Part shown: positions 4,169-63,543 of the stretch, one piece after another | How the letters are laid out: every line of letters starts with the position of its first letter | Position numbering within the stretch: position 1 is the stretch's first letter | Origin: an uncultured bacterium | GTDB taxonomy: Bacteria > Joyebacterota > Joyebacteria > Joyebacterales > Joyebacteraceae | Assembly: GCA_964487295.1 (NCBI GenBank) | Contig: CAZAQL010000001.1 | Span: forward strand, 13,091 to 77,090 | Direction: 5' to 3' | Length of the DNA stretch: 64,000 nucleotides | Notes under the pieces: model-generated | What the model saw: only the letters and a program-made list of their open reading frames with translations | Databases searched by the model: none | What the model was told of the DNA's origin: nothing | Program-made: the position numbers and the translations under genes

Positions 4169-4317
4169 CAGAGACGAATCCGGCCGGGTGTGGCGACTGC
4201 GCCGCCCGCCCGAGCCGGGGCTCTGTCTCGGCGCCGGTCCGGCTCCGCCCGCCGTTGAGACGGCAGTGCGGCCTTCGACGAACGCCGGCTCGACGCCGGC
4301 GAGGGGGTGAGGAAGGG

Positions 4318-4800: not shown

Positions 4801-4818
4801 GGCAGAACGCAGCTTCAC

Positions 4819-6192: not shown

Positions 6193-6215
6193 GAAGCACG
6201 CACACTCCAGAGATC

Positions 6216-21978: not shown

Positions 21979-23334
21979 ATGCACAGCTACATCTTCCGCG
22001 AGTACGACATCCGGGGCGTGGTGGAGCGCGACCTGACCGAGGACGTGGTCAGAAACATAGGGCGCGGGTTCGGGACGTACGTCATCCGCCACGGCGGGTC
22101 GACCGTCTCGCTCGGCGGCGACGTGCGGCTCTCGACGCCGCGTTTCCGCGAGCTCATCACCGAGGGACTCACGTCGGTCGGAGCGAACGTCGTCGACGTC
22201 GGGACCGTCCCGACGCCCGCGCTCTATTTCACGCTCTTCGAGCTGCCGGTGGACGCGTCGCTCATGATCACGGGGAGCCACAATCCGCCCGACATGAACG
22301 GTTTCAAGCTCAATCTCGGGCCGGCCAGCGTCTACGGCGAGGAGATCCAGAGGATCCGCGAGATCATCGAAGCGGGAGATTACGAGGACGGGAGCGGGAC
22401 GACGACGACAGCGGACATCCTGGAGCCGTACAAGAGGGCGATCCGCGAGCGCATCCATCTCGAGCGTCCGCTCAAGGTTGTCGTCGACTGCGGCAACGGT
22501 TGCGGGTCGCTCGTTGCGGAGGATCTATTGTCGAGCATCGGGTGTGAGCTCGTTTCTCTCTACTGCGAGCCGGACGGAACGTTCCCGAACCATCACCCCG
22601 ATCCGACGGTGATGGAGTACATCACCGACCTCATCGCGGCGGTGAAGGAGCACGGCGCCGATATCGGCATCGGCTACGACGGTGACGCCGACCGTGTGGG
22701 CGTGGTGGACGAGAAGGGCGAGGTCGTCTACGCGGACAAGATGCTCGCGCTCCTCGCGCGAGAGGTTCTCGCGAAGGGTCCGGCGAAGATCGTCTTCGAC
22801 GTCAAGTGTTCTCAGGCGCTCGTCGAGGATATCGAAGCCCACGGCGGCACGCCCATCATGTGGAAGACGGGACACTCGCTCCTCAAGGAGAAGATCCGCG
22901 AGACCGGCGCGCCGATCGGGGGCGAGATGAGCGGCCACATGGTGCTCGCGGACGATTTCCACGTCGTGGATGACGCCGTCTACGCGTCGTGCAGGATCCT
23001 CCAAATGCTGTCGCGGACGGACAAGCCGCTCTCGGCGATGGTCTCGACCATCCCGCACTATCACGCGACGCCCGAGATCCGCGGGGAGACCACGGATGAT
23101 GCGACGAAGTTCGCGATGGTCGAGAAGGCCGTCGAGTACTTCAAGGCGAACTACGACGTCATCGATGTCGACGGCGTGAGGATCCTTTTCGGCGACGGCT
23201 GGGGCCTCGTCCGAGCCTCCAACACACAGCCCGTCATCGTCATGCGCTTCGAGGCGAAGACCCGCGAACGGCTGGAGGAGATACAGGCCCTCGTGACCGA
23301 TAAGTTGAGGGAATACGGGGAGATACGGCTGTAG
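21979..23334 (+). CDS. phosphomannomutase/phosphoglucomutase (alpha-D-phosphohexomutase family)
   Basis: Active-site loop TGSHNPPDMNGFK. Metal-binding GYDGDADR. Sugar-binding GGEMSGH. ATG 21979 after GAGGGGG. Confidence 0.85.
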   Translation: MHSYIFREYDIRGVVERDLTEDVVRNIGRGFGTYVIRHGGSTVSLGGDVRLSTPRFRELITEGLTSVGANVVDVGTVPTPALYFTLFELPVDASLMITGSHNPPDMNGFKLNLGPASVYGEEIQRIREIIEAGDYEDGSGTTTTADILEPYKRAIRERIHLERPLKVVVDCGNGCGSLVAEDLLSSIGCELVSLYCEPDGTFPNHHPDPTVMEYITDLIAAVKEHGADIGIGYDGDADRVGVVDEKGEVVYADKMLALLAREVLAKGPAKIVFDVKCSQALVEDIEAHGGTPIMWKTGHSLLKEKIRETGAPIGGEMSGHMVLADDFHVVDDAVYASCRILQMLSRTDKPLSAMVSTIPHYHATPEIRGETTDDATKFAMVEKAVEYFKANYDVIDVDGVRILFGDGWGLVRASNTQPVIVMRFEAKTRERLEEIQALVTDKLREYGEIRL

Positions 23335-30439: not shown

Positions 30440-32203
30440 ATGAAGCGCGTAAGTACTGGACAGGTTGCAGTTTGGCTTCTCCTACTGCTCATCCTCGCCA
30501 CGCCGCAGGGAACGGCTCATGCGGCGTACCGGCTGGCGATCCTCGGCGACCGCACGGGAGGACACGAGCCCGGCGTCTACCCGTCCATCATCGAGGAGAT
30601 CGAGCTGCTCAAGCCGGACATCGTCGTGACCGTCGGCGATCAGATAGAGGGCTACGGGGACGACATGGAGGCCATGTCGGCCGAGTGGGACACGCTGCTC
30701 GGGATGCTCGACGCCATCGAGGCGCCCGTATACCTGACGGCGGGGAACCACGACATCTGGTGTGACGACAGCGAGGCCCTCTACCGGAATCGCACCGGGT
30801 TCGACCCGTACTACTCCTTCGACTTCGAACAGACCCACTTCGTGATCCTCGACAACAGCCGGTACGAGTCCTGGAACGAGATCGACGACGCGCAGCTCGA
30901 CTGGCTCCGTGAGGACCTTGGGCGTCACGGCCCTGACGGACAGGTCTTCGTCTTCTATCACAAGCCGCTCTGGCTTCTGACGACGGCTGCCGGCGTGAGC
31001 GACCCGGTGCACGAGCTCCTGGTGGAGCATGGTGTGGACGCCGTCTTCACGGGTCACTTCCACCACTACTTCCACGGAACGTACGACGGGATCCGGTACA
31101 CGAGCGTCGGAAGCTCGGGCGGGTATATGGAGCGCATGGAGACCGAGCCCGTCGCGCGAGGCGAGTTCTTCCAGTTCGCCTGGGTCACAGTGCGCGAGGA
31201 CGGGCTGGACCTCGCGGTGATCGACGCGGGGAACGTCTACCCTCTCGACTTCCACACCGTCGACAATCAGAGAGAGATCACCGCGATCGAGTCCGAGTAC
31301 GTCGCCGTCACGCCGCTCCGTCTGGACGAGGGAGCGACCGACACGCTCGATGTCGTCGTCAGGATCGAGAACGGCGCTTCGGTCCCGCTCGAGGATGTCG
31401 TCCGCTGGAGCGCGCCCGGGCTCTGGGCCGTCGAACCGGCCTCCCGCCCGGTCTCGCTCGAGCCGGGTGAGGCTCGGGAGTTCGAGTTCAGGATGTGCCC
31501 TCCCGAGTCCATCTTCCCAGCGCCCTCTCTCTCAGTGAACTACCCGCTGTCGAACGGCATGGAGGTGCTGGCCGAGGTTCCACTCCGCGTCATGCGGAGA
31601 GCCGAGGCGGCGCTCTTCGGCTCCGCGCCCGCGATCGACGGTGCGCTCACCGAGCCGTGCTGGCTCGCCGCGCAGCCCGTGACTCGACTCTACCCCGCGT
31701 ATGACGAGGACGAGTGCGACATCGACGGAGACACGGAGTTCCGGTTCGGACACGACGATGAGAACCTCTATCTGTCTGCCGTGTGCCACGAGCCGGCCAT
31801 CGACGCGATCGTCGCAGAGAGCGTGGAGCGGGACGGGCCCGTCTACCGCGACGACTGCGTCGGGTTCTTCATCCAGCCGGACACTGACGAGATGACCGTC
31901 TACCAGGTCTACGCCAGCCCGGAAGGAACGGTGTTCGACCAGCGCATCACGTACGATGAGTCCATGATCTACACGGCCGACGTGTCGTGGGACGGCGACT
32001 TCGAGGCGGCGTCCCGGATCGGCGAGGACCGCTGGGTCTTCGAGGCGGCGATCCCGCTCTCCGAGCTCGGCGTGGCCCTCGGCGAGAGCGATGTCTGGCG
32101 GATCAACTTCCGGCGCAAGCAACAGAGGACGTTCGGCGTCGAGGATTGGCAGGTGCCTCTCGACTACCATCCGAACACGCTCGGAGAGCTGGTCCTCAGG
32201 TAG
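30440..32203 (+). CDS. secreted calcineurin-like metallophosphoesterase with C-terminal CBM9-like/carbohydrate-binding-type domain
   Basis: Signal peptide. Metallophosphoesterase motifs GDRTGG, VTVGDQIE, GNHD, GHFHHY. C-terminal domain with CWLAAQPV..ENLYLSAVCHEP..DDCVGFFIQPD..WRINFRR. Confidence 0.75.
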   Translation: MKRVSTGQVAVWLLLLLILATPQGTAHAAYRLAILGDRTGGHEPGVYPSIIEEIELLKPDIVVTVGDQIEGYGDDMEAMSAEWDTLLGMLDAIEAPVYLTAGNHDIWCDDSEALYRNRTGFDPYYSFDFEQTHFVILDNSRYESWNEIDDAQLDWLREDLGRHGPDGQVFVFYHKPLWLLTTAAGVSDPVHELLVEHGVDAVFTGHFHHYFHGTYDGIRYTSVGSSGGYMERMETEPVARGEFFQFAWVTVREDGLDLAVIDAGNVYPLDFHTVDNQREITAIESEYVAVTPLRLDEGATDTLDVVVRIENGASVPLEDVVRWSAPGLWAVEPASRPVSLEPGEAREFEFRMCPPESIFPAPSLSVNYPLSNGMEVLAEVPLRVMRRAEAALFGSAPAIDGALTEPCWLAAQPVTRLYPAYDEDECDIDGDTEFRFGHDDENLYLSAVCHEPAIDAIVAESVERDGPVYRDDCVGFFIQPDTDEMTVYQVYASPEGTVFDQRITYDESMIYTADVSWDGDFEAASRIGEDRWVFEAAIPLSELGVALGESDVWRINFRRKQQRTFGVEDWQVPLDYHPNTLGELVLR

Positions 32204-33535: not shown

Positions 33536-33564
33536 TTGCTTTGCTCCGTAATCTGTGTTATCAT
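33536..33564 (+). promoter_or_regulatory. candidate sigma-70 promoter TTGCTT-N17-TATCAT in AT-rich island
   Basis: A local AT-rich stretch (cattgctttgctccgtaatctgtgttatcatttgaagttagg) in otherwise GC-rich DNA. AAGGAG 9 nt before ATG 33628. Confidence 0.4.
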
Positions 33565-33627
33565 TTGAAGTTAGGAGCAATCAAAGACGAGACGCCCGAT
33601 TTCCTCCTCGACAAGGAGATGGAGAGC

Positions 33628-36255
33628 ATGGTGCGTGTCCTGACAATCAGCCTTGCCGCGGCGCTGCTGGTCGCGGCCGCGGTCCCTGCGGCGGCCGGTC
33701 CCGAGGGGCCGTACGTGCAGGCCCGGGTCCAGTTCCGCGACGCCGCCGAGGCGGAGCGGTTCATGAGCCTGGACGAGCTCGACGTGATGAAGTACAAGCC
33801 CGGCGTCGGCGTTCAGCTCGTCACGAGCCACGAGCAGATCGAGGAGTTCCGGTCGCTCGGCTACGACGTCGTCATCGAGATCGATGACATGTCGAGCTTC
33901 TACGCCGCCCGGAACACGGCTCGCGGTTACGGTGACTTCTACACGTTCGACGAGACCGTGACCTTCATCAACTCGCTTCACGCGTCCTATCCGAACATCG
34001 TGAGCGAGCCCATCAGCATCGCGACGACGGAGCAGGGGAGGACGCTGTGGGCGCTCAAGATCTCCGACAACCCGGAGGTCGACGAGCTTGAGCCCGAGAT
34101 CCTTCTCGACGCGGTTCATCACGCGCGCGAGCCGATCACGATCAACGCCGTCCTCAACTACATGGACTGGCTGACGTCAAACTACGGGACGGACCCCGAG
34201 GCGACGTTCCTCGTAGACAACCGGGAGATCTGGTTCCTCCCGTGCGTCAACCCGGACGGCTATGTCTACAACGAGCAGACCGACCCCAACGGCGGCGGCA
34301 TGTGGCGCAAGAACCGCCGGGACAATGCCGGCAGCTCGTGTTACGGCGTCGACCCGAACCGCAACTACAGCTACCAGTGGGGCACGTCCGGCATCTCGTT
34401 CGACCCGTGCAGCGACATCTACTGCGGGACCCAGGCGTTCTCCGAGCCGGAGATCGCCGGCTACCGTGACTTCGTCGAGTCGCACGACTTCGTGACGAAC
34501 ATCACGTTCCACTCGGTCGCCGGAGCGATCCTGGTTCCGTGGAGCTACACGACCACATCCCCACCCGAGCCGGATAACACGATCTTCCGCGACATCGGCG
34601 ACATGATGGCGATGTCGAACGGCTACGAGGTCGGGACCGCGTACGAGACGATCAACTACACCTGCTCCGGCACCACCTGCGACTGGATGTACGGCGTGCA
34701 CGGGATCTGGTCGCTCTGCATCGAGGTGAGCGGCAGCGGCTTCTGGCCGCAGCAGAGCGAGATCGCCGGGCTCACGGCCGAGAACCTCTGGCCGCAGCAG
34801 TACATCAGCCGCATCGCGGGGGCCTACCTCGCGCTCAGCTCGACGCACTTCACCGGCGGAAACGGCGACCAGGAGCCGGACGCCGGCGAGACGCTCGACC
34901 TGACGATCACGGTCGAGAATCAGGGCGTCGTCGCGGACGCGTCGAACGTCCAGGTCACCCTGGTGACGGACGATCCGTACGTCGCGCTGCACGATGCGCA
35001 CACGACGCTCGGTTCGATCGCGGCGGGGTCCTCCACGCAGAACACGTTCGACCCGTTCTCCCTCTCGGTCGACGCGGGAACCCCGGACGGTCACGGTCTC
35101 GCCGTGACGCTCATCATCGAGGGCGACGGGCTGTACATGGAGGAGGAGCTGTCCTGGATGGTCGGCGAGCCGACGGTCGTGTTCTTCGACGACATGGAGA
35201 GCGGCACCGGCAACTGGGTCGAGAATGACGGCTACTGGGGTCTGACGACCTCGTCGTACCACTCGGCATCGAACAGCTACACGGACAGTCCGAACGGCAG
35301 CTACAGCAACTACCGGAACACGTGGATCGAGCTGGCGTCCCCGATCGACTTCTCCGCCGCGTCGGCTGCGGACCTCTCCTTCTGGCACCGCGTCTCCACG
35401 GAGGAGGACTACGACTTCTGCTACGTCGAGGTCTCGGACGACAACGGAGCGACGTGGAACCAGGTTGGCCCGAAGTACCACGGCAACAGCTACGGCTGGG
35501 ATCAGGTGGAGCTGTCGCTGAACGATTACGTCGGAACGGCGGGCTTCAAGCTCCGCTTCCGCTTCACGTCGGATACCTACGTGACCGCCGACGGATGGTA
35601 CGTGGACGACGTGACGATCAGCGGGCCGCCGACCGGCAACACGAAGCCGACCGCGCCGGTGCTGAACGACCCGCCCGATGGCGGCACGGTGTCGGTCTCC
35701 ACGCCGGAGCTCACGGTCACAAACGCCGTGGACAGCGATCCCGGCGACGTGCTCACGTACGGTTTCCGCGTCTACGACGACGAGTTCTGCACGAGCCTCG
35801 CCGCGTCGATCTCCGGCGTGGCCGAGGGCAGCGGAACGACGTCGTGGACCGTCGACTCCGGTCTCGCTGACGGCACGTACTACTGGCGGGCCTACGCGGA
35901 CGACGGGACCGAGCGAAGCCAGCTCATGGAGACCGCGTCCTTCACGGTGGAGAGCACGGGCGTCGACGAGGCCGTCGGCCGCCTCGCGCTCCATGCCGCG
36001 AGCCCGAACCCGTTTGCCGGTTCTGCGAGACTCTCGTTCTCGCTTCCCGAGCGAGCGGACGTCGAGCTCTCCGTCTACAGCGTTGACGGCAGACTGGTGC
36101 GAACGCTCGTATCCGGCGAGGCCGGTCCCGGCGTCATCGAGCTCACATGGGACGGTCGTGACAACGGCGGCCGCCGCGTGGGCAACGGCCTGTACTTCAT
36201 GCGCCTGACCGCGGCCGACGAGACGAGGCACGGCAAGCTCGTCATGCTCCGCTAG
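33628..36255 (+). CDS. secreted M14 zinc carboxypeptidase with MAM/jelly-roll-like and Fn3-like domains and Por/T9SS C-terminal sorting domain
   Basis: M14 zinc site HHAREP. Signal peptide. C-terminus ..SPNPFAGSARLSFSLPERADVELSVYSVDGRLVRTLVSGEAGPGVIELTWDGRDNGGRRVGNGLYFMRLTAADETRHGKLVMLR matches the T9SS CTD pattern. Confidence 0.85.
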   Translation: MVRVLTISLAAALLVAAAVPAAAGPEGPYVQARVQFRDAAEAERFMSLDELDVMKYKPGVGVQLVTSHEQIEEFRSLGYDVVIEIDDMSSFYAARNTARGYGDFYTFDETVTFINSLHASYPNIVSEPISIATTEQGRTLWALKISDNPEVDELEPEILLDAVHHAREPITINAVLNYMDWLTSNYGTDPEATFLVDNREIWFLPCVNPDGYVYNEQTDPNGGGMWRKNRRDNAGSSCYGVDPNRNYSYQWGTSGISFDPCSDIYCGTQAFSEPEIAGYRDFVESHDFVTNITFHSVAGAILVPWSYTTTSPPEPDNTIFRDIGDMMAMSNGYEVGTAYETINYTCSGTTCDWMYGVHGIWSLCIEVSGSGFWPQQSEIAGLTAENLWPQQYISRIAGAYLALSSTHFTGGNGDQEPDAGETLDLTITVENQGVVADASNVQVTLVTDDPYVALHDAHTTLGSIAAGSSTQNTFDPFSLSVDAGTPDGHGLAVTLIIEGDGLYMEEELSWMVGEPTVVFFDDMESGTGNWVENDGYWGLTTSSYHSASNSYTDSPNGSYSNYRNTWIELASPIDFSAASAADLSFWHRVSTEEDYDFCYVEVSDDNGATWNQVGPKYHGNSYGWDQVELSLNDYVGTAGFKLRFRFTSDTYVTADGWYVDDVTISGPPTGNTKPTAPVLNDPPDGGTVSVSTPELTVTNAVDSDPGDVLTYGFRVYDDEFCTSLAASISGVAEGSGTTSWTVDSGLADGTYYWRAYADDGTERSQLMETASFTVESTGVDEAVGRLALHAASPNPFAGSARLSFSLPERADVELSVYSVDGRLVRTLVSGEAGPGVIELTWDGRDNGGRRVGNGLYFMRLTAADETRHGKLVMLR

Positions 36256-40158: not shown

Positions 40159-41670
40159 ATGCAGCCGTCACAGAGTCATCAGGACACGATCAAGGGGCAC
40201 CTGCTCCGCAAGCTGGGCGCCTGGGGAAGCAGGCGATCCGCGGACGACGTCAGGAAGCTCGTAAGCTGGTCGGCGAAGGGGCTTCCCGAAGGCGTCATAC
40301 GCGACCGGGTCGAGAGCTTCCGCAGGGCCCTGGACTCCTCGGCGGCGGCGAGCGAGCTCGTCGACGCGTTCTTCAACCTCGCACCGACCTGCCGCAGGCG
40401 CATCATCGAGAACCTGCTTGTCAACTGGGGCATTCTCGGCGGCCAGACCCGGTATCACATCATGGAGTCCGAGGGGTGGATGCCGCCGAACTTCGCGGTC
40501 ATAAGCCCCACCATGCGATGCAACCTCCGCTGCAGGGGGTGCTACGCCTTCGAGTACACGCGGGACGGAGAGCTCACGACCGAGGAGTTCGACGACGTCA
40601 TATCGCAGTGCAAGGCGCTCGGCATCCACTTCTTCACGATCTCCGGCGGCGAGCCGTTCGTCCGTGAGGACCTCCTCGATCTCATCGACCGTCACAGCGA
40701 CTCCCTCTTCCAGATATACACGAACGGCACGCTCATCGACGATGCTGTGGCGGACCGCCTCCTCGAGCTCGGCAACGCGATGCCGGCCATCAGCGTCGAG
40801 GGGTACGAGGAGGAGACCGACGCCCGGCGCGGCCCCGGCACGCACGCCCGCCTGACGGCCGCGATGGAACGGCTCAGAGAGCGCGATCTGCTGTTCGGGA
40901 TCTCCGTCACGGCGACGCGTCACAATCAGGAGATCCTGACGAGTGAGTCGTTCTACGATTCGTACATCGAGCGCGGCGCGCTCTTCGCCTGGATCTTCCA
41001 GTACATCCCGATCGGCCGCGAGCCGGATGTCGATCTCATGCCGACGCCGAGTCAGAGGACGGAGCTCAGGAGGTTCGTCCACGGCCTGCACCGGACGAAG
41101 CCGATCTTCATCGGGGACTTCTGGAACGACGGCGCCTACACGGGCGGCTGCATGGCCGGCGGCCGGATCTACTTCCACGTCACGTCGAGCGGCGGAGTGG
41201 AGCCCTGCGTCTTCGCCCACTTCTCCGTCGGCAACGTGCGCGAGCGTCCGCTGCGCGAGATCCTTCAGTGCGATTTCTTCAAGGCGATTCGCTACGCGCA
41301 GCCTTACCGTGAGAACAGGAACCTCTACACGCCCTGTATGATCATCGACAACCCCGAGGTGCTCCGCGATCTCGTCGCGGAGTTCCGCGTCCCGCCAAGT
41401 CACGCCGGCGCGGAGACCATCGTGGCCGATCCCCGGATCGTCGCGCACCTGGACGAATACTCCCGGGGGATCAGACGACTGGCCGACCCCGACTGGGAGC
41501 GTGATCATTGGGATGATCCGGACTCCGAGTGGTACCGCGATGGCGGCTATCGCCTCGAACGCCAGTGGGCGGACGAGCGCGAGGCGCTTGTTCGATGGAA
41601 CGAGGAGCGGGGAAGGAAGAGGAGCCGACGGTCCGGTGTGGAGGCCGCAGCGGGGCACGTGATCCGGTAG
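40159..41670 (+). CDS. radical SAM enzyme with SPASM/twitch-like auxiliary Cys cluster, ~110-aa N-terminal extension
   Basis: CNLRCRGCY (CxxxCxxC) and GGEPF motifs. Downstream GGCMAGGRIYFHVTSSGGVEPC..C SPASM-like pattern. GAGGTGA RBS. Confidence 0.75.
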   Translation: MQPSQSHQDTIKGHLLRKLGAWGSRRSADDVRKLVSWSAKGLPEGVIRDRVESFRRALDSSAAASELVDAFFNLAPTCRRRIIENLLVNWGILGGQTRYHIMESEGWMPPNFAVISPTMRCNLRCRGCYAFEYTRDGELTTEEFDDVISQCKALGIHFFTISGGEPFVREDLLDLIDRHSDSLFQIYTNGTLIDDAVADRLLELGNAMPAISVEGYEEETDARRGPGTHARLTAAMERLRERDLLFGISVTATRHNQEILTSESFYDSYIERGALFAWIFQYIPIGREPDVDLMPTPSQRTELRRFVHGLHRTKPIFIGDFWNDGAYTGGCMAGGRIYFHVTSSGGVEPCVFAHFSVGNVRERPLREILQCDFFKAIRYAQPYRENRNLYTPCMIIDNPEVLRDLVAEFRVPPSHAGAETIVADPRIVAHLDEYSRGIRRLADPDWERDHWDDPDSEWYRDGGYRLERQWADEREALVRWNEERGRKRSRRSGVEAAAGHVIR

Positions 41671-43041: not shown

Positions 43042-43089
43042 GGATAATTGGAAGCGAATGAGTGGGTCATGGCATCCGAACGGAGGAAC

Positions 43090-44868
43090 ATGATGCGCAG
43101 ACTGACCGCTTTGCTCGTCCTCGTGCTTGTTCTCGTCTCGGCGCTCTCAGCCGCGGCGAAGCTTGAGCTGGCCGAGATGACGACGCGCGGCGCGATCCAG
43201 GACGCCACGGCGCGCGGCGACCTGGAGGAGGCACAGAAGTACCTCTACATGGCGTATTCGATCTATGCGCCCGAGAAGCTGCCGGCGGAGTATCGCGGCG
43301 GCCGGATCGACAAGTGCGGCGTCCCGACCATCGAGGCGATCGACGACGCGCTCCCCACGTTGCCCGAGGCTGTGGCGAACGAGATCCGCGGCCTGCGGGT
43401 TCGCCCGTCGTGTCAGACCTACATGGACACCGAGCATTTCCGCATCCACTACGATACGAGCGGCACGCACGCGATCCTCTCGACCGACTACCTCAACGCC
43501 ATCGCAACGGCTCTGGAGAACTGCTGGGACGAGGAGATCGACGTGCTCGGGTTCCGTCAGCCGCCGAGCGACGGCAGCGACGCGGACGGCGGAGGCGGCA
43601 GCGCGCACTACGACTTCTACGTCCAGAGCCTCTCGGGCGTTTACGGCTACTGCCAGCCGACGTTCTACGCCCCGGGCGGACCCGCGAACGACGCGACGAG
43701 CTTCTGCGTCATCGACAACGACTACGCGGGGTTCGGATACGTCGACCCGACAGACCCGATGAAGGTCACGGTCGCCCACGAGTTCTGTCACGGCCTTCAG
43801 GCCGCGCACGACGTGAACGAGGAGCTGTGGTACAAGGAGTGCACGTCGGTGTGGGTCGAGGAGATGGTCTACGACGAGATCAACGACTACACGCAGTACT
43901 GCAGCTCGTTCTTCTCGAGCCTCTGGCGCCCGCTGGAGTACGACGACAGCAACGTCCGCATCTACGGGTCGTTCGTCTGGAACATGTTCCTCACGGAGAA
44001 CATCAGCCCCAGCGTGGTCGTGGACAACTGGTGGCAGATGGAGGTCTCGGGAGAGTACACGGCCATGAACGCCGTGTTGACCACATACGGGACGTCGCTC
44101 GAGGAGCAGTTCCACGAGTTCAGCATCTGGAACTTCTTCACGAACGCGAGGAACGACGGCGCCCACTACGAGGAAGCCGCTTACCTGCCGCTCGCCTCGT
44201 TCCAGCGGACCTTCGGCATGTATCCGCTGACCGACGTGGGTCCGTACACGGCGACGCGTCCGGACCACATGGGTTCCAACTACATCAAGTTCTCGAACCC
44301 CGGGAACACGTGGACCGGTCTCCACCTCTCGTTCGACGGTCCTGCGCTCTACGAGCTGCCCTACTGGGCCGACGTCTGCGTCCGCGAGGACCAGGTCGGC
44401 GTGGGGCACACGAGCCATCTCGGCGAGATCACGCTGAACCCGTGGGGCAACGGCGACATGACGGTCGCTGACTGGGATCTCATGGACTACGCGTGCCTGA
44501 TCGTCACGAACGGCTGCACGACGACCGATGACATGGACTACCTCTTCAGCGCCGAGCAGGTCGACACCGGCGTCGAGGTCGGCTCTCACATCTTCGCGAT
44601 GAAGCCGGCCAGCCCGAATCCGTTCACGGCGCAGACCTCGATCGCGTACACCGTCCCCAACGGCGGAGGCGCCGTCGAGATGACGATCTACGACGTCAAC
44701 GGCAGAGCCGTCCGCACGCTCGTCGACGAGCAGATGATGCCCGGCGACCGTCTGGCGTACTGGGACGGCCTGGACAACAACGGCGAGAAGGTCGCGTCCG
44801 GCGTCTACTTCGCGCGCCTCAACGTCGACGGCCTGACGGCCTGCGGCAAGCTCGTCGTTCTGAAGTAA
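43090..44868 (+). CDS. secreted HEXXH zinc metallopeptidase-like protein with Por/T9SS C-terminal sorting domain
   Basis: Signal peptide MMRRLTALLVLVLVLVSALSAAA. HEFCH motif (TVAHEFCHGLQAAHD). C-terminus ..ASPNPFTAQTSIAYTVPNGGGAVEMTIYDVNGRAVRTLV..GVYFARLNVDGLTACGKLVVLK. Confidence 0.7.
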   Translation: MMRRLTALLVLVLVLVSALSAAAKLELAEMTTRGAIQDATARGDLEEAQKYLYMAYSIYAPEKLPAEYRGGRIDKCGVPTIEAIDDALPTLPEAVANEIRGLRVRPSCQTYMDTEHFRIHYDTSGTHAILSTDYLNAIATALENCWDEEIDVLGFRQPPSDGSDADGGGGSAHYDFYVQSLSGVYGYCQPTFYAPGGPANDATSFCVIDNDYAGFGYVDPTDPMKVTVAHEFCHGLQAAHDVNEELWYKECTSVWVEEMVYDEINDYTQYCSSFFSSLWRPLEYDDSNVRIYGSFVWNMFLTENISPSVVVDNWWQMEVSGEYTAMNAVLTTYGTSLEEQFHEFSIWNFFTNARNDGAHYEEAAYLPLASFQRTFGMYPLTDVGPYTATRPDHMGSNYIKFSNPGNTWTGLHLSFDGPALYELPYWADVCVREDQVGVGHTSHLGEITLNPWGNGDMTVADWDLMDYACLIVTNGCTTTDDMDYLFSAEQVDTGVEVGSHIFAMKPASPNPFTAQTSIAYTVPNGGGAVEMTIYDVNGRAVRTLVDEQMMPGDRLAYWDGLDNNGEKVASGVYFARLNVDGLTACGKLVVLK

Positions 44869-51267: not shown

Positions 51268-53351
51268 CGCACGGGTATCACGAAGATGACATCATGGGGA
51301 AGGCGTACGACGCGCGGCTTGTGCGGCGCCTCCTCACGTTCGTGCGGCCCTACGCGCGCCTCATCGTGCTGGCCGTCCTCATGCTCGTCGCCGTCGCCGC
51401 GTTCGAGATCGCGTTACCGTATCTCACCCGTTCGGCCATCGACGATTACATCGTCGCGACGTCCCGGCTCATCGTCTCGGACGGGGAGGGAGCGGCGTTC
51501 GTCGAGCGGCATCCCGACGGGCTCATGCCGGTCGACGGAGAGCCGGGTTCGTACTTCGCCCGGACGAAGACGCTCTCAGGATACGATCCGCGCGAGGTCG
51601 CGCGCGCTTCGGATCAGGGCGTCATCCGCGACGGGTTCTACTACCTGGCCGACCGCGAGCGGGCCGTCCGGGCGGGACTCGACCTCGACGACCTCAGGAC
51701 CGCCGGATCGGTCGTCGCGATCCCGATCGACTCTCTCTCCGGGCTCTCTCCGGAGCAGGTGCGCATCCTGCGCGCCGAGGACTTCGAGGGAATCTCGCGC
51801 ATCGCGCTCACGATCGTGGCGATGCTTGTCCTCTCGTTCACGTTCACGCTGCTTCAGATCAACATGATGGAACTGACGTCCCAGCGAGTCATGTACGACA
51901 TCCGGATGCGCGTGCTCGGACACCTGCAGAGACTGTCGCTCTCCTTCTTCGACAAGAATCCCGTGGGCCGCCTCGTCACGCGCACGACGAACGACGTGCA
52001 GGTCCTTCACGAGATGTTCACGTCGATCGTCATCACGCTCTTGCGGGACGTGTTCGTTCTGCTCGGCGTCGTGATCGTGCTCCTCCGGCTCAACTGGCGA
52101 CTCGCGCTCGTGAGCTTCGCGGTGCTGCCGTTCATGGCGTGGGTGACCGTCCGGTTCAGCGTTCTCATCCGAGATGCGTTCCGCGAGGTTCGCATCAAGG
52201 TCGCGCGCATCAACGCGTCGCTTCAGGAGAACATCAGCGGCATGCGGGTCACTCAGATCTTCCGGCGTGAGGAGGAGAGCTGCCGGCGGTTCGCGATGAT
52301 CAACCACGAGAACTACCTGGCGGCGATGCGGCAGGTGAAGACGTTCGCGATGTTCATGCCCGTCATGGAACTCGCGAGCGCCATCGCGATCGCGCTCGTC
52401 ATCTGGTACGGCGGCGGCAAGGTCGTTCAGAGCACTCTCTCGCTCGGCACGCTCGTGGCGTTCCTGTCGTACGTCCAGATGTTCTTCCGTCCACTCAGGA
52501 ACCTCGCGCAACAGTACGGGACGATGCAGCAGGCCATGGCGTCGTCGGAGCGGATCTTCCAGTTGCTCGACAACGACCGGATCATCCCTGATCCAGAGGA
52601 GCCTGTCACGCTCGAGCACGTCGAGGGGCGTATCGCGTTCGAGGACGTCTGCTTCGCGTACGTCGAGGGAGAGCCGGTCCTCCGGAACGTCTCCTTCACG
52701 GTCGAGCCAGGCGAGACGGTTGCGATAGTCGGCGCGACGGGCGCCGGTAAGACCTCGATCATCAGCCTCATCGAGCGGTTCTACGACATCCAGGAGGGCC
52801 GCATCACGCTCGACGGCGTGGATATCCGGAAGCTCAGCAAGTCGGATCTCAGGCGCCACATCGGGCTGGTGATGCAGGACGTGTTCGTCTTCGCCGGCGA
52901 CATCAAGGGGAACATCCGCCTGGGGAACGAGGAGATCGGGGATGAGGAGCTTCAGCGCGTCTCCAGACACGTCAACGCCGACCGCTTCATCCGCAGGCTG
53001 CCTGGCGGGTACGAAGAGGAGGTCCGGGAGCGCGGCTCCACGCTCTCGACCGGGCAGCGCCAGCTCCTCGCGTTCGCGCGCGCGCTCGCGTTCGATCCGC
53101 GCATCCTCATCCTCGACGAGGCTACCTCGAACATCGACACGGAGACGGAGGCGCTCATCCAGGACGCGCTCGTCCGTCTCATGGAGGGGCGCACCTCGAT
53201 CGTCATCGCGCATCGGCTCTCCACGATCCAGCACGCGGACAAGATCCTCGTAATGCACAGGGGCCGCATCCGCGAGGTCGGGACACACCAGGAGCTCCTC
53301 GCGAAGCGGGGGTACTACCACACGCTCTACCAGCTGCAGTACGCGCAGTAG
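51264..53351 (+). CDS. ABC transporter permease/ATP-binding protein (subunit 2) with ~110-aa extracytoplasmic insert between TM1 and TM2
   Basis: GTG overlapping the upstream stop (GTGA); ATG 51294 is an alternative. Walker A GATGAGKTS, signature LSTGQRQL, Walker B LILDEATS. Long loop VATSRLIVSDGEGAAF..EDFEGISRI after the first TM. Confidence 0.85.
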   Translation: MTHGYHEDDIMGKAYDARLVRRLLTFVRPYARLIVLAVLMLVAVAAFEIALPYLTRSAIDDYIVATSRLIVSDGEGAAFVERHPDGLMPVDGEPGSYFARTKTLSGYDPREVARASDQGVIRDGFYYLADRERAVRAGLDLDDLRTAGSVVAIPIDSLSGLSPEQVRILRAEDFEGISRIALTIVAMLVLSFTFTLLQINMMELTSQRVMYDIRMRVLGHLQRLSLSFFDKNPVGRLVTRTTNDVQVLHEMFTSIVITLLRDVFVLLGVVIVLLRLNWRLALVSFAVLPFMAWVTVRFSVLIRDAFREVRIKVARINASLQENISGMRVTQIFRREEESCRRFAMINHENYLAAMRQVKTFAMFMPVMELASAIAIALVIWYGGGKVVQSTLSLGTLVAFLSYVQMFFRPLRNLAQQYGTMQQAMASSERIFQLLDNDRIIPDPEEPVTLEHVEGRIAFEDVCFAYVEGEPVLRNVSFTVEPGETVAIVGATGAGKTSIISLIERFYDIQEGRITLDGVDIRKLSKSDLRRHIGLVMQDVFVFAGDIKGNIRLGNEEIGDEELQRVSRHVNADRFIRRLPGGYEEEVRERGSTLSTGQRQLLAFARALAFDPRILILDEATSNIDTETEALIQDALVRLMEGRTSIVIAHRLSTIQHADKILVMHRGRIREVGTHQELLAKRGYYHTLYQLQYAQ

Positions 53352-57528: not shown

Positions 57529-57557
57529 TTGAAACGGGGCACAAATCATGCTATACT
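57529..57557 (+). promoter_or_regulatory. near-consensus sigma-70 promoter TTGAAA-N17-TATACT in AT-rich island
   Basis: ttgaaacggggcacaaatcatgctatactacagtctgtcaagaatttag. Leaves a ~120-nt leader before ATG 57682. Confidence 0.5.
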
Positions 57558-57681
57558 ACAGTCTGTCAAGAATTTAGCGACCGGTTGCCCCCGCGAACGG
57601 TAGACGGGGGCGTATACCCGTGACGCGGGTGCGCGTCGTGCGGACGACGCGCGCGTCCCGTCGGTGAGGAGTGTGACTCGA

Positions 57682-58728
57682 ATGCGAGGAACGAACAGGC
57701 CAACAAGCGTTCTCATCACGGCGCTTCTCGTACTCGTCGCCATGGCGCTTCCGCTCATCTCCTTCGCGGAGGTGAACCGGGAGGTCTCCCCGGAGGAGCA
57801 GGCGAGGATCGACGCGATCAACGACCGGATCACGGAGATGGGGTACGACTGGGTGGCGGGACCGACGAACGTCTCGCACCTGTCGCCCGAGCAGAAGCGA
57901 AACCGGCTCGGCGGCGAGATCCCGCCGGACATCCTCGCGGAGTTCGAGGCCCTCGAGCCCGATCCTGAGATCCTCCGCATGACGTTCCGCTCGAGTTTCG
58001 ACTGGCGTGACTTCGGCGGCGTCACCCCGGCCAAGGACCAGGCGGACTGCGGCTCATGCTGGGCGTTCGGCGCGGCCGGCGCCACGGAGGCGCACATCCG
58101 GATCGCCGAGGGCGTCATCCTCGACGTCTCCGAGCAGCAGATCATTGACTGCAACGGACAGGGCTCCGACTGCGACGGCGGCTGGGCCGGCGATGCCTAC
58201 GCCGTTCACTACAGCCCCGGCGCCGTGAGCGAGGACGACATCCCCTACGTTGCGGACGACAACCAGAGCTGCCGTGAGCGGCGGTACGACAAGATCGCCA
58301 TCATCGACGGCAGCGCGAACATCTCGAACAACGTCTCCACGCTCAAGTACAACCTCGAGACGTACGGTCCGCTCTCGGTCGGCATGTGCGTCTACGACGA
58401 CTTCTACAACTACACGGGCGGGTGCTACGAGAATCCGGGCACCGACTGGACGAACCACGTGGTTCTGCTCGTCGGCTGGGACGACGCGATGTGCGGGGGC
58501 GAGGGCGCGTGGCTCTGCAAGAACAGCTGGGGGCAGGACTTCGGCGACAACGGCTTCTTCTGGATCAAGTACGGGACCTGTCGCATCGGCACCGGCGCGA
58601 TGCGCCCGGTCAACGCTCACACTCCGAAGACCGTCCTGGTGCCAGACGAGTACGCGTCGATCCAGACCGCGATCGACAACTCGGAGCGCGGCGATGTCAT
58701 CAGGATCGCGGAGGGAACCTACAACTAG
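57682..58728 (+). CDS. secreted papain-like (C1A) cysteine peptidase; N-terminal segment of a gene interrupted by in-frame TAG at 58726-58728
   Basis: GAGGAG RBS 10 nt before ATG 57682. Signal peptide. QADCGSCWAFG active-site Cys. Oxyanion Q upstream. NSWG and WIKYG near the His/Asn region. The reading frame continues beyond the TAG. Confidence 0.75.
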   Translation: MRGTNRPTSVLITALLVLVAMALPLISFAEVNREVSPEEQARIDAINDRITEMGYDWVAGPTNVSHLSPEQKRNRLGGEIPPDILAEFEALEPDPEILRMTFRSSFDWRDFGGVTPAKDQADCGSCWAFGAAGATEAHIRIAEGVILDVSEQQIIDCNGQGSDCDGGWAGDAYAVHYSPGAVSEDDIPYVADDNQSCRERRYDKIAIIDGSANISNNVSTLKYNLETYGPLSVGMCVYDDFYNYTGGCYENPGTDWTNHVVLLVGWDDAMCGGEGAWLCKNSWGQDFGDNGFFWIKYGTCRIGTGAMRPVNAHTPKTVLVPDEYASIQTAIDNSERGDVIRIAEGTYN

Positions 58729-58809
58729 ACGGTCGTTCTCGACGACTACCGGTCGCTGATCGGCGGGTACGACCCGACCTTCACCTACCGGGACCCCGAG
58801 GCCTACCCG

Positions 58810-61323
58810 GTGGTGATCGACGCCGGTGGCGCAGGTCACGGCATCTACGTCGAGGAGAGCGAGAACATCCTGATCGACGGTGTGAAGGTGACCGGAGCGA
58901 CGGGTGTCTCGTCCGGCATCTACGTGAAGGCGACGACGGCGACCATCCAGAACGTCGAGGTCTACGGCTGCTGGCGCGGTCTCACCGCGACGTACGGCAG
59001 TTCGGGTCCCGAGGGTGGGCTCATCATCGAGCTGTCGAACTTCCACGACAACGACGTGGCCGGCGTTTTCCTGAACGACGTGCCGAACGCAGACGTCAGC
59101 CTCTACTACGTCGCCTCGTACGACAACGGCGGACCGGGCATCTACTCCTACTCGTCGGCGACGGACATCGAGAACTGCACGATCGCCGGGAACGGGCTCG
59201 ACGGCGGCATCGACATGCGCTCCTCGACCGGCAACGTCATCATGAACAACATCATCGCGTCGAACACGGGCCACGGCATCGTCTGCACGAGCGCCACGCC
59301 CGACATCTCATACAACGACGTCTGGGACAATTCACTGGGCGGATACAGCGGCTGCTCGGCCGGCACGGGCGACATCTCCGTCGACCCGGTCTTCTGTGAC
59401 GCCGCCGGCGGCGTCTACTCGGTCCACGCCACTTCGCCGACCCTGACCCAGGGCGATGGCGGAGGCCCGATGGGGGCGCTCGGCATCGGCTGTCCCGTGG
59501 GTCCGCAGAACCTCGAGATCGCGCAGAGCGGCGCGTCGCTGGAACTCACGTGGGACGAGCCGCCGGCCTCCCGCGCGACCGTCGACTACTACATCGTCTA
59601 CCGCGACACGGTCGCCGTCCCGGCGCAGCAGATCGCGACGGTGGACGCGCCGGCGACCTCCTTCACCGACATCACCATCCCGGCCTGTCAGCTCAGCTAC
59701 TACCGGGTCTCCGCCGTCGATGACGGCGGCCTCGAGGGCGCGCCCTCGAACAAGGTGTTCGGCGAGCTGTGCTACGATGGTCCGACGGCGCTCACGGCGG
59801 GCTTCACCGAGGGCGCGAACGAGCTCAGCTGGTCGGCCGGAGCGGGACCGATCGACGAGTACGTCGTGATGCGGGGCAACGTCCTCGCGGAGCCCGAGTC
59901 GCTCGCGAGCGTCTCGAGCGCGGAGACTGAGTTCGTCGACGTCTGGACGACCGACTGCCCGCGCGACAACTACCGCTACGAGATCGTGCCCGTCTACGAC
60001 ACGGGCTGGTACGGGCAGCCGTCGGCGCAGGTCTCCGTCGATCCGGCTCCGTCGCCGCCCGAGGGCATATCCATCGGGTGGGACATCGACGACATCGTGC
60101 TGAGCTGGGACTGGAACTGCGAGAGCGACTTCCGTCGCTACTGGGTCTACCGCGACACGATCCCGTTCTCCGATCCGATCGACTCTGACCGGCTCGTGGG
60201 CTTCACGCCCGACACGACGCACGTCGACGAGGGTATGAACCCGAACAAGACCTGGTTCTACCGGATCGCGGCGAGCGACGCATCCTCGCAGAAGAGCGTC
60301 TACTCCGAGCTCGTCTGGCTGGGCACAGGCGTGACGATCGACGTGCCGTCGACCTACTCGACCATCCAGTCGGCCATCAACGCGGCGAGCCCCATCGACA
60401 CGGTGCTCGTGGCGGCCGGCACCTACAACGAGAACATCACGCTGAAGGACGGCGTGCTCGTCATGAGCGCGGACGGACCGGCGACCACGGTCATCCAGTC
60501 CTCGACCGGCAACGTCGTCTCCGCGACCGGCCTCGGCGACCTGACGCTTCTGCGGGGGTTCACGATCGACGGACAAGGCTCGGCGTCGAACGGGCTGCAG
60601 ATCCTGGACTCGGTGCTTCGCATCGACGACTGCTTGGTGACGGGCTGCAACAACGGCATGAACTTCACGTTCGGAGCGAAGCCCACCGTCACCGCGTCGA
60701 CGCTGACGTCCTGTCAGTACGGAGCCGCGGTCGGCGACTCGTCGGTACCGTTCTTCTCGGGCTGCACGTTCAGCGACAACTCGTTCGCGGGCGTCTACAA
60801 TCAGGGCGTTCCCGGACCGCAGATCGGCCGGACGCTCGGGGACGCCTGTGACTTCGGGAACAACGCGTACTTCCACGTGTTCAACCTCGCCGCGTCGGAG
60901 CTCGACGCCGAGTACAACTACTGGGGAGACATCTGCGTCGAGGAGGCCTGGTTCTACGGACTCGTCGACTACATCCCGTGGACGGATTCCGGACACACGG
61001 AGGTCTACACGGAGTGTCCCAACAGCGTGCCCGACGGGGACGGGGGGAAGGCGTTCGTGACACACAACTTCCCGAACCCGTTCAACCCGTCGACAGCGAT
61101 CCAGTACGCGCTCGGCCGGTCGGGTCCGGTCTCGCTCTCCATCTACGACCTGCGCGGACGGCTCGTCCGCACGCTCGTCAACGAGGAGCAGGCGGCCGGG
61201 GACTACACGGTCGTGTGGCAGGGGAGGGACGACGAGGGTCGGCAGCTCGGCTCCGGCGTCTACTTCTACCGCATCGACGCTCCGGGCATCTCTGAGCGCC
61301 GGAAGATGGTCATGTTGAAGTAG
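58810..61323 (+). CDS. right-handed beta-helix / Fn3-like repeats / Por-T9SS C-terminal sorting domain; downstream segment of the interrupted C1 peptidase gene
   Basis: Same frame as 57682..58728, with no stop between 58729 and 61323. The track start is an internal GTG. C-terminus HNFPNPFNPSTAIQYALGRSGPVSLSIYDLRGRLVRTLV..GVYFYRIDAPGISERRKMVMLK. Confidence 0.65.
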   Translation: MVIDAGGAGHGIYVEESENILIDGVKVTGATGVSSGIYVKATTATIQNVEVYGCWRGLTATYGSSGPEGGLIIELSNFHDNDVAGVFLNDVPNADVSLYYVASYDNGGPGIYSYSSATDIENCTIAGNGLDGGIDMRSSTGNVIMNNIIASNTGHGIVCTSATPDISYNDVWDNSLGGYSGCSAGTGDISVDPVFCDAAGGVYSVHATSPTLTQGDGGGPMGALGIGCPVGPQNLEIAQSGASLELTWDEPPASRATVDYYIVYRDTVAVPAQQIATVDAPATSFTDITIPACQLSYYRVSAVDDGGLEGAPSNKVFGELCYDGPTALTAGFTEGANELSWSAGAGPIDEYVVMRGNVLAEPESLASVSSAETEFVDVWTTDCPRDNYRYEIVPVYDTGWYGQPSAQVSVDPAPSPPEGISIGWDIDDIVLSWDWNCESDFRRYWVYRDTIPFSDPIDSDRLVGFTPDTTHVDEGMNPNKTWFYRIAASDASSQKSVYSELVWLGTGVTIDVPSTYSTIQSAINAASPIDTVLVAAGTYNENITLKDGVLVMSADGPATTVIQSSTGNVVSATGLGDLTLLRGFTIDGQGSASNGLQILDSVLRIDDCLVTGCNNGMNFTFGAKPTVTASTLTSCQYGAAVGDSSVPFFSGCTFSDNSFAGVYNQGVPGPQIGRTLGDACDFGNNAYFHVFNLAASELDAEYNYWGDICVEEAWFYGLVDYIPWTDSGHTEVYTECPNSVPDGDGGKAFVTHNFPNPFNPSTAIQYALGRSGPVSLSIYDLRGRLVRTLVNEEQAAGDYTVVWQGRDDEGRQLGSGVYFYRIDAPGISERRKMVMLK

Positions 61324-61479: not shown

Positions 61480-61508
61480 TTGACGACCTGCCGTCATTTG
61501 GGTATTAT
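61480..61508 (+). promoter_or_regulatory. near-consensus sigma-70 promoter TTGACG-N17-TATTAT with TGACG-N6-CGTCA palindrome over the -35
   Basis: AT-rich island (tgattgaaagtcattgacgacctgccgtcatttgggtattatcgtattgttg). ~125-nt leader before ATG 61633. Confidence 0.5.
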
Positions 61509-61632
61509 CGTATTGTTGTCGGACTACCAATCATCAACGAACAGAGTTGCTGCCAGCGGAAGGGTCGGCGGCCAGGTCGCGTTGTCGCGCCTGTCCGTGT
61601 CGCTCGTCCGCGCCATCACGGAGGAGCCGACG

Positions 61633-63543
61633 ATGCGCACACGTTACCGCTTCGCGCTGCTTGCGGTTCTCGCCCTTCTGGTCCCGGCGAGCGCCCTCGC
61701 GCAGACCCCGCCCCCGAACTACGACCTCTACTGGGTCGACACGAACAGCGACCAGGTGTGGGCGTACGTCGATACGGCCGGCACGATCGTGAATCCCACG
61801 CCCATGTTCAGCGGCGTCACTTCGATGGCCGTCGCTCAGGACGGCGGCGTACTCATCGGCAAGCAGCTCGGCATCGACCGTCTGGATCCCGTCACGGGGA
61901 CCACGACGACGCTCGACCCGTACTCGTACAACATCGGTGAGCTCTGCGAGGACGGCGAGAGCGGCGACATATTCTGGATCTCGGGCACCGGGTACTCGGA
62001 GCTCTGGGTGTTGCCCTCCGGCACCAGCACGAGCCTCATGGCGACCACTTTCACAGACCAGCCGCTCGACATCGACGTCATACCGAACGGTGAGCGCGCC
62101 GGGAACCTCCTCATACTCCTCGACTCGTACGGAGTCGACCCGAGGCTCGTCGAGCTTGAGCGCGACGGCCTGAACGAGTTCACGATCGTCGACACGGTCG
62201 CGACGTTCTACGAGCAGTGCCCGCTCGCCTTCTCGTTCCTCCCGAACGGGCACATCATCGTCCTCGATTGCGTCGACGGGATGTGGGAGGTCGAGTACGA
62301 CGGGTCCATGACGCAGTTCGGGACCTTCTCGGACGACGGCGTCACCGACATCTCCGTCGGGGCCGACGGAACCGTCTACGTCATGGGAGAGGCCTACGCA
62401 TCAGTCTTCCGCTTCAACTCCTTCGGCCAGCAGCTGTTCCCGTCGATCTTCGGTCCGCTCCTCGGAGGCCCCATCGAGGCCGTCGGGTTCGTCCCGACGC
62501 CGCCGGGGTCGAACGTCGTCGTGAACCCGTTGCTCGGGGTCGACGTGCTCTTCGAGGAGATCACCGACGGCGGGTACACGTCGGCCGAGACCACCGAGAG
62601 CGACAGCCGCACGAGTCCCGGAGGCAACGACCTGCCGGCGTACGCCCAGCCGCCGGGTTCTCGGAGCGATTTCACCTACATCGCGGCGACGACGAGCGCC
62701 GTCTACGAGAACCTTATCCAGGTGGACGTCTACCTGCCGGGAAGCCGCTTCTTCGTCGCGCAGGGGACGGGGGGCGAGTTCCACGACGTGACGGTCGTCG
62801 GGAGCATCGAGGACGCGCGCGGGGTCATCTCGCGGTTCAACTCGCCCGTGCAGATCCCGACGGGCGACGGCACACGCATCGACGGCCCGACCGAGTTCGT
62901 CCTCGTTGAGGACACGAGGGCCCTCCCGGATGTCGTGGACGCGAAATTTGACAGACTCATCGATCTGCTGAACGACGGCGAGCACTCGCCGTCGGCGACG
63001 ATGGACCTCGTGTACGCGAGCCGGTATCTCCTGAGGCGCGCCATGACGGCCGAGCGCATCTACGACGGGGGCAGCGTGCTCGGCGCCATCGCCGAACTGG
63101 CCATGATGAACGATGATATCCGTTCGTTCGCGGGCAAGGGGGTCCCCAATTCGTCAGAGGATCCGCTCGGGAACGTCGCCGGTGAGATGCTGTCGCGCTC
63201 GAAGACGCTGATGTTCAGTCTCGGCCTCATGGTCACGCCGCTCCGCGGAGCGGGCGTCGAAGCGGACGGGGCGACGCTCGCCCTGGCGACGCCGAACCCC
63301 GTGCGCGGCGAGTGTCGGATGCAGCTCACGGGACCGGCCGGGACTCGCGCGCTGGCGGCCATCTACACCGTGGGCGGCCGGCTCGTGCGGACGCTCTACG
63401 AGGGCGAACTGGCGACGGGCTCGCAGGAGCTCGTGTGGAACGGCACGGACGACGCGGGCCGCCGCGTCGCTTCGGGCGTGTACCTTACCAGGGCAATCGC
63501 CGGTTCGAGGGTCTCGACCGGGAAGCTCGTATACGTCAGGTAG
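61633..63543 (+). CDS. secreted beta-propeller-like protein with Por/T9SS C-terminal sorting domain
   Basis: GGAGGAG RBS. Signal peptide MRTRYRFALLAVLALLVPASALA. C-terminus ..PNPVRGECRMQLTGPAGTRALAAIYTVGGRLVRTLYEGELATGSQELVWNGTDDAGRRVASGVYLTRAIAGSRVSTGKLVYVR. Confidence 0.65.
   Translation: MRTRYRFALLAVLALLVPASALAQTPPPNYDLYWVDTNSDQVWAYVDTAGTIVNPTPMFSGVTSMAVAQDGGVLIGKQLGIDRLDPVTGTTTTLDPYSYNIGELCEDGESGDIFWISGTGYSELWVLPSGTSTSLMATTFTDQPLDIDVIPNGERAGNLLILLDSYGVDPRLVELERDGLNEFTIVDTVATFYEQCPLAFSFLPNGHIIVLDCVDGMWEVEYDGSMTQFGTFSDDGVTDISVGADGTVYVMGEAYASVFRFNSFGQQLFPSIFGPLLGGPIEAVGFVPTPPGSNVVVNPLLGVDVLFEEITDGGYTSAETTESDSRTSPGGNDLPAYAQPPGSRSDFTYIAATTSAVYENLIQVDVYLPGSRFFVAQGTGGEFHDVTVVGSIEDARGVISRFNSPVQIPTGDGTRIDGPTEFVLVEDTRALPDVVDAKFDRLIDLLNDGEHSPSATMDLVYASRYLLRRAMTAERIYDGGSVLGAIAELAMMNDDIRSFAGKGVPNSSEDPLGNVAGEMLSRSKTLMFSLGLMVTPLRGAGVEADGATLALATPNPVRGECRMQLTGPAGTRALAAIYTVGGRLVRTLYEGELATGSQELVWNGTDDAGRRVASGVYLTRAIAGSRVSTGKLVYVR

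Follow-up and report, generated by a model that had tools for sequence, protein, structure and literature searches.

A single in-frame TAG codon splits a gene for a predicted secreted papain-family protease in an uncultured bacterium

Nonsense-disrupted genes are routine in bacterial genomes and in metagenome-assembled genomes (MAGs). A recent unitary pseudogene of this type carries a single stop codon in an otherwise intact open reading frame (ORF), has uninterrupted orthologs and is split in two by annotation. The same holds for a gene on the plus strand at 57682–61323 of a 64,000-nucleotide stretch of contig CAZAQL010000001.1 (positions 13,091–77,090; hereafter the window) from an uncultured bacterium, which is predicted to encode a multidomain protease sorted by the type IX secretion system (T9SS) and which is broken by one in-frame TAG. 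The locus is one gene with one base change at an ancestral Glu codon, it shows no decay, and TAG is a normal stop in the window. It differs from the usual disrupted gene in the lack of secondary decay, and the lesion is either extremely young or not real. The feature is of an ordinary and already known kind, and the favored explanation, with a probability of roughly 0.55, is that the population sampled truly carries a nonsense allele of very recent origin.

The T9SS type A cargo proteases of the Fibrobacterota–Chlorobiota–Bacteroidota (FCB) group and allied phyla begin with a signal peptide, continue with a catalytic domain and spacer modules and end in a C-terminal sorting domain, and the product of this gene shares that plan. 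Dozens of homologs with such a layout were found, with C1A peptidases carrying FlgD_ig or Por_Secre_tail domains present in Zixibacteria, Krumholzibacteria, KSB1 and Eisenbacteria. Compared with other T9SS cargo proteases, the present subfamily adds two beta-helix modules and three fibronectin type III (FN3) repeats ahead of the tail, an architecture shared by only ~10 close relatives.

Programmed read-through and the decoding of UAG as pyrrolysine resemble this locus in that the frame stays open and conserved past an in-frame UAG. The locus differs from both in that the stop is not conserved, no stimulatory structure follows it and UAG is the main terminator. It is not a new decoding mechanism and has no bearing on open questions of decoding.

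The interrupted frame and its orthologs

The initial annotation described a frame of about 1,210 codons split by a single TAG. Translation of the window gives 1,214 codons, 1,212 of them sense, in the order 348 sense codons, the internal TAG, 864 sense codons and a terminal TAG at 61321–61323, and both stops are in frame with the ATG at 57682. In the list of ORFs the first half extends over 57664–58728 (354 residues from a GTG, 348 from ATG 57682) and the second half, in the identical frame, over 58810–61323 (837 residues from a GTG). This second GTG, which had been noted as only an apparent start, is indeed the earliest in-frame start past the TAG, 27 codons downstream. The source record, an 83,721-bp NCBI contig, annotates two proteins, P0001 (348 residues) and P0007 (837 residues), and in a protein search each matches its part of the window with 100% identity (57% and 38% of the query).

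At the 67% G+C content of the window, long open frames are frequent, and openness alone is little proof of coding. The two halves share one strong coding signature, with a G+C content at third codon positions (GC3) of 0.90 and 0.92. Nowhere else in the 64 kb do two coding-like segments meet in a single frame with just one stop between them, and a tblastx comparison with a relative returns one high-scoring segment pair of 1,188 amino acids running through the internal stop; the open frame is therefore not due to chance. From the upstream gene to the internal TAG, the sigma-70-like sequence ahead of the ATG is the only promoter-like match.

Seven homologous proteins (P0002–P0006, P0008 and P0009; 46–58% identity) are continuous through the junction, where they follow the consensus RGDxIKVAGGTYxxxVxLxDYxxLxGGYDPTFTxRDP and have Glu or Gly at the site of the stop. 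Six related loci read directly from DNA are likewise single frames across the junction, again with Glu or Gly at the site. Four of them (L001–L004) are GTDB species representatives, either Eisenbacteria or unclassified MAGs, two being labelled Candidatus Eisenbacteria, and the other two (L081 and L082) are metagenome contigs from the Joint Genome Institute (JGI). No stop occurs at this site in any of the seven proteins or six loci. The comparison with orthologs that had been proposed as a check thus returned uninterrupted ORFs and no two-gene arrangement, in agreement with the claim of a single gene interrupted by one stop.

The nearest relative found at the DNA level is L081 (Ga0180431_10000713), with 83% amino-acid and 80% nucleotide identity. 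Its gene is preceded by genes for a flavin adenine dinucleotide (FAD) oxidoreductase and an EamA protein on the minus strand and followed by a gene for a DUF6689/FlgD_ig protein, as in the window, and because the neighboring genes are shared on both sides it is a positional ortholog. The two genes align codon for codon over 3,639 nt with zero gaps. At the junction L081 reads ACA TAC AAC GAG TCG and the window reads ACC TAC AAC TAG ACG. Since L081 has GAG where the window has TAG, the simplest history suggested by the alignment is a single G>T transversion at 58726, converting GAG (Glu349) to TAG, while a route from a Gly codon would take two changes. GAG had been listed among the sense codons one step away from TAG, and the nearest relative carries precisely this one. 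A 54-nt junction pattern with NNN at the codon has no match among GTDB representative contigs, so the source species is not among these representatives.

Domain architecture and the position of the stop

The ancestral product is predicted to be a 1,213-residue, Sec-exported and T9SS-sorted multidomain protease encoded by one gene. Read from the N-terminus, a papain-like peptidase leads into a first beta-helix, three FN3-like repeats link this to a second one, and a type A sorting domain forms the C-terminus. These elements are listed together with the other features of the window in Table 1.

Table 1. Features of the interrupted gene and of other window genes for proteins with FlgD_ig-type C-terminal modules (window coordinates)
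Feature	Position	Strand	Basis or remark
Sigma-70-like promoter match (TTGAAA, 17 nt, TATACT, with TG extension)	57529..57557	+	Consensus match only; putative function
Shine-Dalgarno-like GAGGAG, 10 nt before ATG 57682	57666..57671	+	Read from sequence
Interrupted coding sequence	57682..61323	+	Gapless 3,639-nt codon alignment to the intact L081 ortholog
Probable Sec signal peptide (MRGTNRPTSVLITALLVLVAMALPLISFA / E)	57682..57768	+	By eye: basic N-terminus, hydrophobic core, SFA motif
Papain-family (C1) peptidase domain, residues 104-307	57991..58602	+	Pfam PF00112; complete upstream of the stop
First right-handed beta-helix module, ~residues 318-600	58633..59481	+	Pfam and strands of the ortholog model; outer limits estimated
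Premature in-frame TAG	58726..58728	+	T at 58726 in place of G of the ancestral GAG (Glu349)
GTG, annotated start of the 837-residue downstream "gene"	58810..58812	+	Inside conserved coding sequence
Three fibronectin-III-like repeats, ~residues 608-880	59503..60321	+	Pfam fn3, 28.6 bits; all-beta modules in the ortholog model; limits approximate
Second beta-helix module, opening with VPSTYSTIQSAINAASPIDTVLVAAGTYNENITL	60331..61026	+	Sequence; pectinesterase-like match; internal cross-match
T9SS type A C-terminal sorting domain, residues 1130-1210 of the fused protein	61069..61311	+	NCBIfam TIGR04183
M14 carboxypeptidase with MAM-like and CARDB domains	33541-36255	+	FlgD_ig-type C-terminal module; intact
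606-residue protein, no other Pfam domain	43048-44868	+	FlgD_ig-type C-terminal module; intact
DUF6689 protein directly downstream of the broken gene	61480-63543	+	FlgD_ig-type C-terminal module; intact

The N-terminus (MRGTNRPTSVLITALLVLVAMALPLISFA/E) is probably a Sec signal peptide, and the ORF of L081 begins at the Met equivalent to ATG 57682. The catalytic domain scores 175.7 bits with PF00112 (cut-off 20.7) and covers positions 3–217 of the 220 in the profile. Gln120, Cys126 (in CGSCW), His259 and Asn281 (in NSWG), which we take to be the counterparts of papain Gln19, Cys25, His159 and Asn175, are invariant or nearly so in the homolog alignment A1. Both the profile score and the active-site residues place the predicted enzyme in peptidase family C1.

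The first beta-helix module is recognized by the Beta_helix profile PF13229 (77.4 bits against a cut-off of 25.9; residues 387–540) and by NosD (51.9 bits against 23.6). An AlphaFold model of the ortholog P0003, whose residue at the site is Glu, was made from a 14-sequence alignment; its mean predicted local confidence (pLDDT) is 68. The model contains a regular ladder of strands of 3–6 residues from 341 to 560 (pLDDT ~80–90), and the profile scores above threshold together with these stacked short strands are those of a right-handed parallel beta-helix. A Foldseek search of the PDB with this model retrieved cathepsins L, S and K with TM-scores of ~0.75 on the target, which confirms the papain fold. 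The best 50 matches listed were cathepsins only and the beta-helix fold was not confirmed by the structure search, and a sequence search of the PDB with the beta-helix segment gave one chance match to an antibody.

Ahead of the site the P0003 model has a strand at 319–322 (RLVP), a helix at 329–334 and strands at 341–345 (VIKVA) and 347–350 (GTYQ). Glu351, the equivalent of the interrupted codon, comes next and is followed by strands at 353–355 (VTV) and 360–365, which lead into the beta-helix ladder. The stop is thus predicted to lie between neighboring strands in the first rung of the beta-helix, ~40 residues past the end of the papain domain and ~30 residues into the first beta-helix module. 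The strands in this model and its pLDDT of 81–91 across residues 320–360 support the proposal of the initial annotation that the stop lies inside a folded beta-helix domain and not between domains.

The second beta-helix module shows a sub-threshold Pfam match to the N-terminal part of pectinesterases (residues 884–943), and an internal cross-match links window positions 60334–60540 to L081 positions 3178–3384. Both modules share an opening motif, VPDEYASIQTAIDNSERGDVIRIAEGTYN[TAG]TVVL in the first and VPSTYSTIQSAINAASPIDTVLVAAGTYNENITL in the second, and where the first module has the TAG, the second module of the same protein carries Glu. The near-identical opening of ~35 residues, VP-x-x-Y-[AS]-[ST]-IQ-x-AI...GTYNE, forms an internal duplication on the plus strand (58633–58740 and 60331–60440). 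The motif resembles the GxYxE signature at the N-terminus of pectin methylesterases, a likeness that also draws on the sub-threshold pectinesterase match.

The last 81 residues match the T9SS type A sorting domain TIGR04183 with 33.4 bits against a cut-off of 23. The C-terminus is also matched by FlgD_ig (41 bits), by CHU_C and, under its cut-off of 27, by Por_Secre_tail PF18962 (21 bits); PF18962 alone would not call a sorting domain, while TIGR04183 does. No match to T9SS machinery (PorU, PorV, SprA, PorK-N) was found among the window ORFs that were scanned, which were a part of the total.

Selection, decoding and the origin of the stop

The ratio of nonsynonymous to synonymous substitutions (dN/dS; Nei-Gojobori) relative to L081 is 0.152 for the 348 codons upstream of the stop and 0.184 for the 864 codons downstream, with values of 0.16–0.22 in three downstream sub-blocks. 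For the 27 codons between the TAG and GTG 58810 it is 0.109. The 3,639 nt aligned with L081 contain no indel and no second internal stop. In a relative-rate test, amino-acid changes were assigned to the window lineage or to the L081 lineage by means of an outgroup. With L082 as outgroup the counts (window:L081) are 15:18 upstream and 41:43 downstream, and with P0002 they are 15:20 and 32:36. Neither dN/dS nor the relative rates reveal relaxed constraint downstream of the stop, and the decay typical of a pseudogene is missing. Because no decay is seen downstream, the stop is very young relative to the divergence from L081 (dS ~0.7), or it is not real, or it is read through.

TAG ends about 17 of the 28 long coding ORFs in the window (~60%), next to nine TGA and one TAA, in counts that rest on crude GC3-based gene calls. 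Examples are at 2526–2528, 4166–4168, 6190–6192, 21277–21279, 23332–23334, 41668–41670, 53349–53351 and 63541–63543. Pfam-verified genes with a TAG at the expected end include trpS (20290–21279) and those for phosphoglucomutase, malic enzyme, a radical-SAM/SPASM protein and an ABC transporter; domain IV of the phosphoglucomutase ends 10 residues before its TAG. The genes ending at 32203 and 63543 terminate in TAG as well. The initial annotation had cited the TAG codons at 21277–21279, 32201–32203 and 63541–63543 as ordinary stops and had considered a global recoding unlikely; all three do end genes, and with TAG as the majority stop codon of the window global recoding is rejected. A second in-frame TAG junction was not seen anywhere in the window, and a search of the literature on Eisenbacteria and stop codons returned nothing relevant.

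The wider set of causes put forward earlier consisted of a nonsense mutation, a sequence error and programmed read-through, of which the third is not supported. In the third, a near-cognate or suppressor tRNA, or pyrrolysine, would let some ribosomes pass a programmed or tolerated TAG, producing a short periplasmic protease together with some full-length T9SS cargo. The perfectly kept downstream frame would fit such a scheme, as would the base after the stop, an A, which is a minority context (3 of 21 genuine TAG stops in the window, against 8 with G, 9 with C and 1 with T), and a possible 7-bp hairpin that starts 3 nt past the TAG. The sequence of the hairpin stretch differs in L081, however, and the folding energy of the surrounding 121 nt (58720–58840) is ordinary (z = -0.89; 32 of 200 shuffles fold as well). 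The whole window has no match to an Rfam family and no tRNA gene according to ARAGORN, and the apparently routine termination at TAG would make leakiness less likely. Moreover, the relatives have Glu or Gly at this site and never a stop, which also led to the rejection of pyrrolysine. Since there is no conserved stop and no significant structure, and TAG is the main terminator, programmed read-through, pyrrolysine and code reassignment are each contradicted by a defining test, and read-through is considered very improbable. Its most specific form, in which a real but leaky TAG would act as a newly arisen dual-localization switch between a short periplasmic protease and a minor, T9SS-exported full-length form, is given hardly any weight. 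Phase variation was rejected too, as there is no repeat tract and the lesion is a substitution.

A functional fission of the gene, with a stand-alone protease and a beta-helix/FN3/sorting-domain protein translated from GTG 58810 and both maintained, would agree with the two genes called in the source annotation and with a weak GAGG located 8 nt upstream of that GTG. All relatives are fused, however, the 27 codons that would have become intergenic are under strong purifying selection (omega 0.11 relative to L081), and the consensus scan from the upstream gene to the internal TAG detects no promoter-like match in the junction. The split would also separate adjacent strands of the first rung in the ortholog model, and, from established T9SS biology, the sorting domain of a downstream product that lacks a signal peptide would be useless. 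A maintained two-gene arrangement is implausible because export would fail and the codons between the ORFs are constrained, leaving fission with only a minimal chance.

The alternative that carries real weight, although a tentative one, is an artefact of sequencing, polishing or consensus calling, in which the organism has GAG and the T is a wrong call or a promoted minority variant. The difference from the ortholog codon is a single base with no second lesion in the entire gene, the sequence comes from a metagenome-assembled contig, and the unchanged downstream dN/dS without lineage-specific acceleration is exactly what an intact gene would show. On the other hand, substitution errors in the consensus are rare at normal short-read depth, which counts against an artefact without being decisive. 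The 64 kb contain no other abutting in-frame coding pair, and the gene overlaps that were looked at appeared ordinary; the assembly does not look error-prone in general, an observation that is not decisive and that did not involve a systematic search for frameshifts. A chimeric join was rejected because the gene is collinear with L081 and similarly diverged from it on both sides.

For a genuine, very recent allele, in which the G>T change at 58726 would be fixed or at high frequency in the population, several observations are unfavorable. The total absence of decay is equally predicted by an artefact, and a true allele and a miscalled consensus base look alike in the sequence alone. The protein database contains no sequence with an identity between 59% and 99%. 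With P0005 as outgroup and fewer sites, the relative-rate counts are 17:11 upstream and 13:29 downstream, so that the two halves differ; the direction, with the window lineage slower downstream, is opposite to relaxed constraint on that lineage.

If the allele is genuine, ribosomes starting at ATG 57682 would terminate at the TAG and yield a 348-residue product consisting of a signal peptide, a pro-region, a complete catalytic domain and a tail of ~40 residues, which would include a stub of ~30 beta-helix residues unable to fold. Such a product could reach the periplasm but, lacking the sorting domain, would not be passed on to the T9SS. A protein re-initiated at GTG 58810 would have neither signal peptide nor first rung and would stay in the cytoplasm. 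Because neither fragment could be exported via the T9SS, the outcome would be loss of function of the secreted enzyme. The initial annotation had anticipated that the protease would lose its T9SS export tag, and the stop does separate the signal peptide and papain domain from the sorting domain. The fate of the truncated and restarted products, as well as the reality of the T at 58726, is what we infer from these data.

P0001 and P0007 are fragments of one 1,213-residue protein and should be merged or flagged as a pseudogene. Left unmerged, a "stand-alone" C1 peptidase and a T9SS cargo protein devoid of a signal peptide would pass as real architectures in the databases. Should the allele be real, it would be a clean, datable case in which an uncultured Eisenbacteria-like population has lost a secreted "public-good" protease; this is of modest ecological interest.

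Other genes with FlgD_ig-type modules and stop codon usage

Three further genes in the window encode proteins with a FlgD_ig-type C-terminal module, and all three are intact (Table 1). Against NCBIfam, the DUF6689 protein encoded directly downstream of the broken gene matches the C-terminal ends of PorU and PorZ, both below threshold, and does not match TIGR04183.

TAG is also frequent in related Eisenbacteria loci (L021, L036, L081, L082 and L002), in small samples with crude gene calls. The usage of TAG in bacteria is reported in a review to be low, ~20%, and unresponsive to G+C content (PMC9348620). With ~60% TAG in the present window, the clade may be a true outlier to this "TAG paradox", and a lineage so rich in TAG would stand apart among bacteria on window-scale counts.

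In L002, two abutting in-frame segments with coding-like composition (4928–6196 and 3569–4927, minus strand) lie antisense to the orthologous gene. They almost certainly mirror the high-GC sense gene as shadow ORFs, which the GC3 filter picks up as false positives on the opposite strand.

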